Shown: in pieces, positions 39,762-42,451 of the stretch
Layout: every line of letters begins with the position of its first letter
Numbering within the stretch: position 1 is the first letter of the stretch
From: Escherichia phage vB_EcoM_VR7
Strand: one strand, 5' to 3'
Sequence record: NC_014792.1
Length of the DNA: 64,000 bases
Translations under genes and position numbers: made by a program
Notes under the pieces: generated by a model
The model's input: the letters and a program-made list of their open reading frames with translations, nothing else
Database searches by the model: none
Told to the model about the DNA's origin: nothing

Positions 39762-39869
39762 CTACTTACCAAAAAGACCATCAATACACATGCTGAATAC
39801 AATTCCAAAACAAAAGCATGCAAAACCCAATCTAAAAACATCCCAGCCATCGATACAGGCTTCAATCAT
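39762..39869 (-). CDS. Putative small hydrophobic membrane peptide (35 aa)
   Basis: Manually translated: MIEACIDGWDVFRLGFACFCFGIVFSMCIDGLFGK; strong GAGGAG SD ~7 nt upstream; start overlaps the last codons of the o-spanin gene. Confidence 0.3.
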   Translation of the reverse strand: MIEACIDGWDVFRLGFACFCFGIVFSMCIDGLFGK

Positions 39870-40155
39870 GGCAACGCTCCTCTTTTAGTTCAGAACGATA
39901 ATAACATAACATACCTTTTTGGTCATGTACATATCTTTTTACATCATTCATCCAAATCCTGAATTCTTGCGATGCTTCAAAAGGCATACCAACCCAGGCT
40001 TGACCGTCAATAACCTTCACTTCCCATTGCTGACGGTATTCCATTAATGTCTGTGGCCAATTAGGATGAACTTGAATTGTGGGCTCCGCAACGGGCTTCT
40101 GGGCACATGAAACGAGTCCAATAGCCAAACATACTGCCATGATAGATTTCATCAT
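39862..40155 (-). CDS. Outer-membrane spanin (o-spanin lipoprotein)
   Basis: Signal peptide ending in lipobox LVSC (MMKSIMAVCLAIGLVSC); 97 aa; directly downstream of and overlapping the i-spanin gene. Confidence 0.7.
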   Translation of the reverse strand: MMKSIMAVCLAIGLVSCAQKPVAEPTIQVHPNWPQTLMEYRQQWEVKVIDGQAWVGMPFEASQEFRIWMNDVKRYVHDQKGMLCYYRSELKEERCHD

Positions 40156-40505
40156 TTGGTGAGCTCCTGGAAGTCCTGGGCGAACTTATCAAAGGACTGA
40201 TTAATCTGTTTTTCAACTAATTTAGGCTTAGCTGCCACAACCTTAGTACGTTTTGCATCTACACGAAGTTTATCATTTTCCTTCTGCAGAAGTTCAACAT
40301 ATTCCTGGCGCTCCTGGTCAAGGAGATTAATTTGATTAACCTGGTCTTTTACTGATTGCAGATTTTTCGCGTTATCTTCTGCAACTTTGGTGACCGCAGC
40401 CACCTCTGTCTTGAGATTATCCACTTTTGCTTTTAGATAGAAACCACTACCAGCAGTTACTACCAGGGCGAGCATAAGCCCCGCAGTGATATTACTTATT
40501 TGCAT
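40152..40505 (-). CDS. Inner-membrane spanin (i-spanin)
   Basis: N-terminal TM helix (ITAGLMLALVVTAGSGFYL) followed by a charged coiled-coil region; 117 aa; paired with the o-spanin. Confidence 0.7.
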   Translation of the reverse strand: MQISNITAGLMLALVVTAGSGFYLKAKVDNLKTEVAAVTKVAEDNAKNLQSVKDQVNQINLLDQERQEYVELLQKENDKLRVDAKRTKVVAAKPKLVEKQINQSFDKFAQDFQELTK

Positions 40506-40999
40506 AACTTGATGATTACCTCAACAATATCATCCTGGGATAAACCATTCAGGAGGATGTGATTTGTACTGTCAGATGCTGAAATGCGGAACTGATTACC
40601 AACTTCATCCGCCATATCATCCTGGGTTAACACTGGATGTTTAATTCCCAGGCGGTGTTGAAGTGTCAGGGGTTCAACCACAACATAACAAACACATCCA
40701 TTGATATGCACATTAGGTTGGGTCTGATTGATGAACACTTCTGCATCATATTTAACCAAATGGTTCTTTAAGAAGTCAACCATTTCAGGAACAGATTCAT
40801 GAAGTGCTTCTTTACGCTCTTCTGATTTCTTATTGCGATATTCCTTCTGTTTGGTCTTCAACTTATTATCAGACGCCAGTTTCTTTCTTAAGTCAGTAAG
40901 GAACCCAACATTTTTGGAACCTTTATAAACATAGATTCCGTCATGGCGGTCACCATATACATCAACAATCATTTCATTTGAAATCAGTTGCATATTCAT
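40496..40999 (-). CDS. alc: Alc-like protein (167 aa from internal ATG)
   Basis: Position between the spanins and rnlA and 167-aa length match T4 alc; sequence identity not recalled, so the call rests on synteny and size. Confidence 0.4.
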   Translation of the reverse strand: MNMQLISNEMIVDVYGDRHDGIYVYKGSKNVGFLTDLRKKLASDNKLKTKQKEYRNKKSEERKEALHESVPEMVDFLKNHLVKYDAEVFINQTQPNVHINGCVCYVVVEPLTLQHRLGIKHPVLTQDDMADEVGNQFRISASDSTNHILLNGLSQDDIVEVIIKLCK

Positions 41000-41009
41000 A
41001 ATATTTTCC

Positions 41010-41276
41010 TCAATAGCGGTTATAACCTCTAGGACCAAAAGAGTTTGCACCCAGGCGCTCATCTTTCTTTTTGGCTCTTGCTCTAAACCCAGAATCACCT
41101 GTTTGGTCTTTCAGTTCTTTTAACAATTTGGCCTTCAGGTCAGTAATGAAACCAATCCGGCGGTCTCCCTTGTAGACATAGATTCCATCATTTCTGTCAC
41201 CATATGCCTTTGTAACTCTGTCATTTGAAATTAAGTTTAACATGTTTTGGTCCTCATCAGTAGTTGATGGAACCAT
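41010..41276 (-). CDS. Truncated paralog of the Alc-like N-terminal domain (88 aa)
   Basis: LISNDRVTKAYGDRNDGIYVYKGDRRIGFITDLKAKL aligns with LISNEMIVDVYGDRHDGIYVYKGSKNVGFLTDLRKKL of the downstream gene. Confidence 0.4.
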   Translation of the reverse strand: MVPSTTDEDQNMLNLISNDRVTKAYGDRNDGIYVYKGDRRIGFITDLKAKLLKELKDQTGDSGFRARAKKKDERLGANSFGPRGYNRY

Positions 41277-41287
41277 TATGTATAGAA

Positions 41288-41316
41288 AGAAGGGGCTTGT
41301 ACACCCCTTTTTTATT
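41288..41316. terminator. Hairpin plus T-run terminator downstream of rnlA
   Basis: gggg-cttgtaca-cccc flanked by T-runs on both strands. Confidence 0.6.
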
Positions 41317-42451
41317 ATTCAGGCAGGATTACATCCGCTTGGTAGTCCGCTGGGATGTAAAGTTTATGATTTTTAAGGAAAACATTATTGATTTGAGCGA
41401 TGGTTTGCTCTGTTTCCTGGGGACGTTGATACGTGTTCATTAATACGGAGAACAAACCCGGATATGGTTTACACAGTTCTTGACCTTTAATCGCAAACTC
41501 GCGTCGGTCTTTTCCTGCCAACTGTTTCTGGGCATCAAGCAACAGTCCCAGGGTATTGGACAGATAATCCAGATGGGTCAAAGTAAAGGCATTAACTTTT
41601 TCACGAGCATAATCATCGCCAGTAAACATGGCAATAACATCATCTGCACCGCCTGCGACAACAACTTCAAAAAGACGCTGGTTATTGTTAACAGAATCCT
41701 TTGTATGGTGTAAAGCACAATACCATTCTGTCTTAACTTTAAATTTGCGACCATCGACCAGCTCATAGACAAAGCCTTCAATCTCTTTCATATCACGGAC
41801 GTTTTCAATTGTAGCCGGGTCATATGCTTCAACCAGGAATGGGCGAAGCGCGGCATCTTTAAACAAATCCCGATAAGGGATATATTCACCAGTTTCATTA
41901 TGGCGAACGTTCAGTAAAATCAGGTCACGTTCCTGGTAAGGCAAAACAATGCGGTTGGTTGGCGCAACATATTCCATATTGCATGTATAACCAGCTTCAG
42001 TAATTTCAGTTACACGCTCACGGAAAGCTATACGGTGTTCTTGTTTGAATACCTGCAGGGCTTCTGCTGCCTGGGAGCTTTTGATTGACCCTTTGGATTT
42101 AAAAGCAATATTGGTCTGGTCCATATAAGTGGAGACAAGAGAGCCATCAGCCTTGGTCATGACCAGCGCAACTTCATCCATATTGATATCCATGGTCAAC
42201 GGATTTTCGCCCAAGTTAAAGAACTTTTCCATAGGACGAGCCGCAATACGAACTGGACCATCTGCATCCATTTCAAACATAATGCCACGGCACTCTAATG
42301 CATCATCAAGGAGCCAATCACTATAGGAAGCATAGTTATAGCTAAAGATGCGGAACTTAGTTTCAAATGGAGAAACGAAATCAGTATAGAAAAACTTACC
42401 TTTTTCAGATTCAGCGCACAGCTTCATTAAGTTGTCATATAATTCAATCAT
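41315..42451 (-). CDS. rnlA: RNA ligase 1
   Basis: Strong similarity to T4 gp63 (FRIFSYNYASYSDWLL.DALECRGIMFEMD...PVRIA.RPMEKFFNL.ENP, KADGSLVSTY, GKDRK). Confidence 0.95.
   Translation of the reverse strand: MIELYDNLMKLCAESEKGKFFYTDFVSPFETKFRIFSYNYASYSDWLLDDALECRGIMFEMDADGPVRIAARPMEKFFNLGENPLTMDINMDEVALVMTKADGSLVSTYMDQTNIAFKSKGSIKSSQAAEALQVFKQEHRIAFRERVTEITEAGYTCNMEYVAPTNRIVLPYQERDLILLNVRHNETGEYIPYRDLFKDAALRPFLVEAYDPATIENVRDMKEIEGFVYELVDGRKFKVKTEWYCALHHTKDSVNNNQRLFEVVVAGGADDVIAMFTGDDYAREKVNAFTLTHLDYLSNTLGLLLDAQKQLAGKDRREFAIKGQELCKPYPGLFSVLMNTYQRPQETEQTIAQINNVFLKNHKLYIPADYQADVILPE

Follow-up and report, generated by a model that had tools for sequence, protein, structure and literature searches.

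Alc of bacteriophage T4, the only Alc for which this activity is known, terminates host RNA polymerase on cytosine DNA and not on modified DNA. Its mechanism has not been established; its action is blocked by mutations in dispensable region I of the polymerase β subunit (PMC2988021). A stretch of 64,000 nucleotides (nt) of Escherichia phage vB_EcoM_VR7 (NC_014792.1), referred to below as the window, includes a gene for an Alc-like protein of 167 amino acids (aa) and, directly upstream of it, a short gene, alcB, whose product resembles the N-terminal part of Alc. The short gene has been public in GenBank and PHROGs for years. It is the same gene as alcb of phage SP18, gp243 of VR7 and PHROG 17715; the SP18 GenBank record (2010) names the pair alca and alcb and describes alcb (ADO19581.1) as 'similar to N-terminal region of bacteriophage JS98 Alc', and RefSeq copies are labelled 'inhibitor of host transcription' by transfer from Alc. 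A literature search that included SP18 alcb found no paper on alcB, nor on its tail motif, selection, promoter or leader. New here is the analysis of conservation, selection, anatomy and expression signals of alcB.

Two further T4 systems serve for comparison. The isolated N-terminal fragment of MotA interferes with activation by MotA, and in the genes e, soc, 49 and I-TevI the ribosome-binding site is hidden in read-through RNA and free in transcripts from a proximal promoter. AlcB has its first 55-60 residues in common with T4 Alc, including all conserved residues of the N-terminal module (N-module), and differs from it in ending with a tail motif that is absent from Alc. It is proposed that AlcB occupies the partner site of the Alc N-module, likely on host RNA polymerase, and would in this way tune Alc-dependent termination; this reading is given a probability of roughly 45%.

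Identification of alc and alcB

The 167-aa protein matched Pfam family PF17527 (ALC) with 174.5 bits (gathering threshold 25; E=2e-51), residues 1-166 covering profile positions 1-176 of 177, and matched PHROG 1253 with E=3e-75. It has the same length as T4 Alc, and its gene lies between rnlA (gene 63) and pseT.3/pseT.2, a position that is the same in RB32 (a T4 relative), JS98, SP18 and VR25. Judged by profile match and T4 gene order, the gene is alc and its product an ordinary member of the family. An earlier reading of this DNA, here called the original prediction, had taken the protein to be Alc-like and had named a lack of similarity to T4 Alc as evidence to the contrary; the ALC match is full-length. 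A sequence search of the PDB with Alc revealed no meaningful match and no solved Alc structure (the best match was a primase, E=0.32), and NCBIfam contained no model matching either Alc or AlcB.

Both open reading frames (ORFs) of the original prediction were found on the minus strand at the positions it had given (Table 1). The upstream one had been described as an 88-aa ORF that repeats the N terminus of Alc. The repeat is clear: BLASTP aligned AlcB with Alc at 48% identity over 62 aa (E=6e-18), and profile-profile comparison by hhalign gave a probability of 99.5% over 56 columns, with AlcB residues 2-57 on Alc residues 4-59. The short ORF alone passes the gathering threshold of Pfam ALC (36.8 bits versus 25), at profile positions 3-62 of 177 only.

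The length of 88 aa did not hold. The ATG at 41243 (MLNLISN...) is preceded by GAGGA 7 nt upstream, whereas the ATG at 41276, which would give an 11-codon extension, overlaps the -10 hexamer of the candidate promoter described below. SP18 and P896 both carry an in-frame stop immediately before M12, the 77-aa start. Database annotations and 38 distinct cluster members (>170 contigs) are almost all 77 aa long, the same extent is annotated in SP18 (alcb) and VR25 (gp201), and positions 1-77 of the 77-position PHROG 17715 profile ('inhibitor of host transcription') correspond to residues 12-88 of the 88-aa ORF (E=4.8e-54). Hence, alcB encodes a 77-aa protein. The protein is identical among VR7 (gp243), VR25 and VR26, and 94% identical to that encoded by SP18 alcb.

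The full architecture of Alc, consisting of N-module, long helix and C-terminal domain (C-domain) in ~165 aa, is absent from AlcB, which ends at 77 aa and aligns with Alc no further than Alc residue 59. AlcB is thus, by these alignments, a domain-sharing paralog and not an orthologue of Alc.

Architecture of Alc and AlcB

An AlphaFold2 model of Alc, built from an alignment of 26 sequences, reached a predicted local distance difference test score (pLDDT) of 92.9. The modelled elements are a short helix (residues 8-15), a β-hairpin (23-26/29-33), a long helix (34-80), and an α/β C-domain (87-166). The top fold matches of the model in the PDB were to the C-terminal, 'double-wing' DNA-binding domain of T4 MotA, with a sequence identity of only 12-14%, i.e. 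no sequence similarity. The modelled C-domain of Alc thus appears to resemble the MotA DNA-binding domain, and any DNA binding by Alc is putative. The N-terminal domains are unlike, that of MotA being all-helical and the Alc N-module consisting of a helix and a hairpin. Because its C-domain matches that of MotA, Alc looks like a two-part protein in which one module docks and one domain faces the DNA, and AlcB would then represent the docking module alone.

AlcB was modelled as a fusion, AlcB-linker-Alc, in which the AlcB part was covered by 7 alignment rows only and from which pLDDT, predicted template modelling score (pTM) and secondary structure were obtained. The model showed helices at AlcB residues 7-14 and 33-47 and strands at 22-25 and 28-32, with pLDDT 77-92; these are the same elements as in Alc residues 1-47. 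The Alc N-module residues I6, G16, D20, G21, I22 and G32, which are invariant, and D36 and L37, which are nearly invariant, are all retained in AlcB. Two thirds of the long helix are lacking, ~14 residues or the first four turns being kept, as is the entire C-domain.

The remainder of AlcB was described in the original prediction as divergence into a basic tail. Divergence and charge both stand: hhalign detected no AlcB-Alc homology past AlcB residue 57, i.e. in the last 20 residues, and the net charge of the tail is +4 to +5. Alignments of the tail with the DNA for Alc residues 46-77, in frame or frameshifted, showed a faint ER..A..S.P resemblance only. Residues 49-77 have a pLDDT of ~30 in the fusion model and are hence predicted to be disordered. 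However, the tail is not arbitrary. In its C-terminal motif (Table 1), G65, N67, S68, F69, G70, P71 and N75 are invariant across the three lineages that possess the gene, namely the genus Gaprivervirus, the metagenomic sequences L003/L004, and the metagenomic sequence L008, despite an overall identity of 48-50%; G52-F53 is also kept in all three. No other occurrence of the motif was found in the window.

Within Gaprivervirus, alc codons 1-45 (40865-40999) are more divergent than the remainder of the gene, with synonymous (pS) and nonsynonymous (pN) differences per site of 0.34 and 0.056, respectively, versus 0.08 and 0.001. That the first 45 codons diverge far more than the rest suggests a recombination breakpoint inside alc. 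Two alleles of the Alc N-module occur in the genus, a VR25/SP18 type and a VR20/M719/YenP8 type. Among the library proteins, P0035 (63 aa, T4-type) is an Alc that a frameshift truncates behind residue 47. It recalls the spontaneous alc mutations of T4 strains with cytosine DNA and does not correspond to AlcB.

Distribution, origin and selection

A tblastn search with the 77-aa AlcB matched 789 phage records via the Alc N terminus. A second place of this kind was present in ~33-34 of them, 33 of which are full-length and belong to Gaprivervirus, and the other ~755 have one. Over the 1 kb at 40400-41400, identity is 99.3% to Escherichia phage vB_EcoM_VR25 and 93% or more to 32 SP18/VR-group (Gaprivervirus) records, and all 32 of these megablast matches cover the alcB region; the window thus belongs to a T-even phage of this genus. 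The metagenomic sequences L003, L004 (77 aa) and L008 (78 aa) include alcB at the same position, their Alc proteins being 78-80% identical to that of the window. The absence or disruption of the short ORF in relatives, named by the original prediction as a result that would count against it, was thus not what was seen: the ORF occurs in 33 full-length records and in two metagenomic lineages. In RB32, JS98 and the metagenomic sequences L005-L007, rnlA is directly followed by alc and there is no short gene.

When 1.84 billion representatives were searched exhaustively with the profile, 8 matches were returned and no further stand-alone AlcB family was found, and a k-mer homology search with AlcB returned near-identical proteins only. 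Two proteins, P0036 (1414 aa) and P0039 (1163 aa), scored with E values of 9e-10 and 2e-7 in the profile search. The scores were judged to reflect a repeated β-hairpin resemblance and probably not homology. Both are large surface-type proteins with 9-11 tandem repeats of the form ..TNNGDGTYTYVNERG.. (GDGTYTY-type).

The two copies are adjacent and co-oriented, their similarity begins at the initiation codon, and both are preceded by a common Shine-Dalgarno string, (A)TGAGG, in all three lineages. Thus, the simplest origin of alcB is a partial tandem duplication that took in the 5' end of alc with its Shine-Dalgarno sequence and the first ~60-77 codons, in agreement with the original prediction. 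The distribution over Gaprivervirus, L003/L004 and L008, together with the shared tail motif and position, points to one old duplication in a single T-even branch. The tree built by neighbour joining from the 48-aa N-modules was unresolved, with the AlcB copies as distant from each other as from the Alc proteins.

Selection was assessed by Nei-Gojobori counts in seven Gaprivervirus genomes. The pN/pS ratio was 0.12 for the whole of alcB, 0.12 for alc and 0.10 for rnlA, and it was 0.05 for alcB codons 46-77, i.e. the tail. Between lineages, synonymous divergence (dS) is saturated, and the ratio of nonsynonymous divergence (dN) to dS is ~0.18-0.19. These ratios indicate that alcB is under purifying selection and has been maintained as a functional gene by Gaprivervirus phages and their near relatives. 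Between the window and L003, dN is 0.49 for AlcB versus 0.18 for Alc, and AlcB therefore evolves ~2.7 times faster.

Expression signals

The T4 early promoter consensus consists of a -35 element GTTTAC, a spacer of ~17 nt, and a TATAAT-like -10 element. A candidate of this type precedes alcB in the window (Table 1). The promoter scan alone was no better than chance, with 8 sites versus 7.0 expected in shuffled sequence. At the corresponding position behind the rnlA stop, alcB is preceded by GTTTACA-17-TAGTAT in L003 and by GTTTACT-17-CATAAT in L008; the single-copy alc of RB32, JS98 and L005 is preceded there by GTTTAC[A/T] and, after a spacer of 17 nt, by a -10-like hexamer. The candidate alcB promoter is regarded as homologous to that of single-copy alc because of the shared position and sequence, not because of the score, and its activity is inferred. 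If these elements are read as early promoters, AlcB took over the ancestral alc promoter. As the first cistron behind an early-type promoter, AlcB would probably be expressed early.

No promoter-like element was found between alcB and the alc start in the window, L003 or L008, and alc is provided with a Shine-Dalgarno sequence only. In L003 and L008 this sequence overlaps the alcB stop, which is separated from the alc ATG by 10 nt, as in the window (Table 1); SP18 and VR20 have an additional TAA stop and a 13-nt gap before alc. The sequence ATGAGGAAAATATTATG ahead of alc is identical in the leader of the single-copy alc of L005. Formation of an AlcB-Alc fusion by read-through or frameshifting was also considered and was ruled out, alc being one base out of frame and SP18 having two tandem stops.

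The alcB leader can fold into a hairpin that pairs the -10 region and adjacent downstream bases with the Shine-Dalgarno sequence and AUG of alcB. The predicted folding energies were -13.2 kcal/mol (z -3.4) for the window, -20.7 kcal/mol (z -7.0) for L003, and -21.8 kcal/mol (z -7.9) for L008. The leaders of single-copy alc gave -9.4 kcal/mol (z -1.7) in RB32, -7.9 kcal/mol (z -1.7) in L005, and essentially no fold in JS98 (z 0.1). The hairpin arms of L003 and L008 differ in sequence and the pairing is kept. These leaders were folded one by one; RNAalifold on eight leaders gave no consensus structure, the hairpins being out of register. The arrangement is similar to that in T4 e, soc, 49 and I-TevI, in that the -10 region pairs with the Shine-Dalgarno sequence and AUG and a proximal start would remove the 5' arm. 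It differs in that the proximal promoter of the T4 genes is of the late type, whereas the candidate promoter of alcB is of the early type. A regulatory role of the leader hairpin is inferred by analogy with these T4 genes.

Directly downstream of rnlA lies a terminator-like GC hairpin (Table 1). Read on the plus strand, this hairpin runs into TTTTTT, and it may function as a two-way terminator.

Proposed role of AlcB

The original prediction had suggested that, if the larger gene is Alc, a stand-alone copy of its N-terminal domain could modulate Alc activity, and the domain anatomy seen here is compatible with such a role. In the proposed mechanism, the Alc N-module would dock on a partner and the C-domain would read the DNA. 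Host RNA polymerase is the most likely partner because genetics implicates dispensable region I of the β subunit in Alc action. AlcB would fill the same docking site and, having no DNA-reading domain, would adjust or restrict termination by Alc in the early phase of infection. The conserved tail of AlcB might make an extra contact of its own. Transcripts starting ~7 nt past the -10 hexamer would be devoid of the 5' arm of the leader hairpin, and alcB would be translated from them. In read-through RNA, the alcB ribosome-binding site would remain paired, so that alcB would be blocked while alc could still be translated. The AlcB:Alc ratio would thus drop as infection proceeds.

Several points weigh against this proposal. 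Both the polymerase contact of the Alc N-module and DNA binding by Alc are conjectural. The fusion model, with a pTM of 0.51 and a disordered tail, contains no docked AlcB-Alc state and can neither show nor exclude a complex. It would seem wasteful to make an antagonist from the very mRNA that encodes its target, unless the proportion of the two shifts over time, and the ~2.7-fold faster evolution of AlcB fits a new function equally well as a shared site. Finally, a Gaprivervirus-type contig (L013:2440-2667; ENA contig k141_9694) has a 35-nt deletion in the alcB tail, by which the ORF is frameshifted into the start region of alc. The deletion is seen in one assembly and may be a natural loss-of-tail variant or an assembly error.

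It is possible, though unlikely, that AlcB is a subunit that pairs with Alc via the shared N-module or long helix, its tail adding a contact that single-copy Alc lacks. Co-assembly is favoured by the adjacency and probable translational coupling of the two genes, and the exposed 47-residue helix of Alc (34-80) would suit oligomerisation. AlcB residues 1-47 also have a high pLDDT in the fusion despite the few alignment rows. However, the pTM is low, the tail is disordered beside Alc, and only ~14 residues of the long helix are left in AlcB. Moreover, the Alc N-module alleles (VR25/SP18 versus VR20/M719) do not co-vary with AlcB, which carries slight weight against a symmetric heterodimer.

Another doubtful explanation is that AlcB has a separate job, in which the N-module serves as a scaffold and the tail motif is directed to a host target other than Alc, for example for a share of the nucleoid-unfolding (unf) activity that genetic work attributes to T4 alc. 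No part of the protein is more strongly constrained than the tail, which has no Alc counterpart; its motif, lying in disordered sequence, resembles a short linear docking motif, and the faster evolution of AlcB than of Alc is in line with such a job. Yet every conserved residue of the Alc N-module is kept, which argues that the old binding function persists, no partner can be named, and the motif occurs nowhere else in the window.

Since, in all lineages, the stop codon of alcB and the Shine-Dalgarno sequence of alc overlap, the gap being 10-13 nt, and alc has no promoter of its own, alcB might also act mainly as an upstream reading frame whose translation brings ribosomes to the alc start, the peptide being of little importance. 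This is improbable: the amino acid sequence is kept, as judged by pN/pS, the tail motif does not vary, the protein stays at 77-78 aa across saturated dS, and alc itself has a strong Shine-Dalgarno sequence. The notion of a functionless decaying remnant of the duplication or an annotation artefact, for which the truncation of the copy and the deletion in L013 might be cited, is contradicted by the selection data and hardly tenable for a gene that is intact in ~33 isolates and three diverged lineages at saturated dS and has a Shine-Dalgarno sequence, a candidate promoter and a structured leader of its own.

Gene order

The genes rnlA, alcB, alc, pseT.3 and pseT.2 follow each other in this order, all on the minus strand. 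The last 10 nt of alc (40496-40505) are at the same time the first 10 of pseT.3, and pseT.3 overlaps pseT.2 by 4 nt. From these overlaps, alcB, alc and the two spanin genes are considered to form one tightly packed unit.

Table 1. Features of the alcB-alc locus in the window, listed in the direction of transcription.
Feature	Position	Strand	Extent or sequence	Basis or remark
rnlA	41315-42451	minus		RNA ligase 1
Terminator-like GC hairpin	41290-41309	minus	AAGGGGTGTACAAGCCCCTT then CTTTCT	Right after rnlA; overlaps promoter -35
Candidate T4-early-type promoter	41275-41303	minus	GTGTACA-17 nt-CATAAT	Scan score 9/12; position
Leader hairpin	41240-41281	minus		Pairs -10 region with alcB start region
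alcB, ORF as listed	41010-41276	minus	267 nt, 88 aa
alcB, gene	41010-41243	minus	77 aa	TGA stop at 41010-41012
N-module copy in AlcB	41103-41243	minus	alcB codons 1-47 (short helix, β-hairpin, start of long helix)	BLASTP, hhalign, AlphaFold2
Gly/Pro/Ser-rich basic tail	41013-41102	minus	alcB codons 48-77	pLDDT, composition
C-terminal motif	41013-41051	minus	AlcB residues 65-77, G-x-NSFGP-x-G-x-N-[KR]-[FY]-stop	Three-lineage alignment
alc Shine-Dalgarno sequence	41006-41011	minus	GAGGAA	Overlaps alcB stop; 10 nt from alcB stop to alc ATG
alc	40496-40999	minus	167 aa
pseT.3	40152-40505	minus	117 aa	i-spanin
pseT.2	39862-40155	minus	97 aa	Spanin

Cytosine modification and the significance of alcB

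Gaprivervirus phages are reported to have alc, denA, denB and the dCTPase gene and to lack the dCMP hydroxymethylase gene, and an unknown base has been suggested (PMC12115623, PMC8056088). VR7 DNA contains modified, unglycosylated cytosines, as found in a BREX study (PMC6326788). In VR25, the slot between uvsX and imm is occupied by a single gene, gp048 (L017:6423-6926), for a 167-aa protein that belongs to PHROG 1754 and has no Pfam match; in RB32, the same slot includes gene 42, encoding dCMP hydroxymethylase, and beta-gt. The VR25 slot fits the reports of a genus without gene 42, whose absence was checked here by synteny in VR25 and for the genus rests on the two reports (PMC12115623, PMC8056088).

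Thus, alcB may be linked to a different DNA-modification chemistry. The only genus with AlcB is also the one with unexplained cytosine modification, but this is one coincidence on the phylogeny and does not amount to evidence for such a link. In the widest form of the proposal, AlcB is a natural N-module-only antagonist or tuner of Alc that evolved in Gaprivervirus phages, whose modified, unglycosylated cytosines would be made without the T4 gene-42 pathway, and that sets the stringency or the timing with which RNA polymerase is halted on templates of imperfect protection; this form is quite unlikely as it stands.

As a genome feature, alcB is an ordinary small lineage-specific paralog. Its interest lies in Alc, a classic host shut-off factor, for which a selected protein consisting of the N-module only would be a ready-made tool for defining the role of each half. 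If the widest form of the proposal is true, the N-terminal 47 residues of Alc would be the polymerase-docking part and the MotA-like C-domain the reader of cytosine modification, and a terminator that has been without a known mechanism since 1993 would have its first model at the level of domains. The predicted MotA-like C-domain offers a concrete hypothesis for how Alc may sense cytosine modification.

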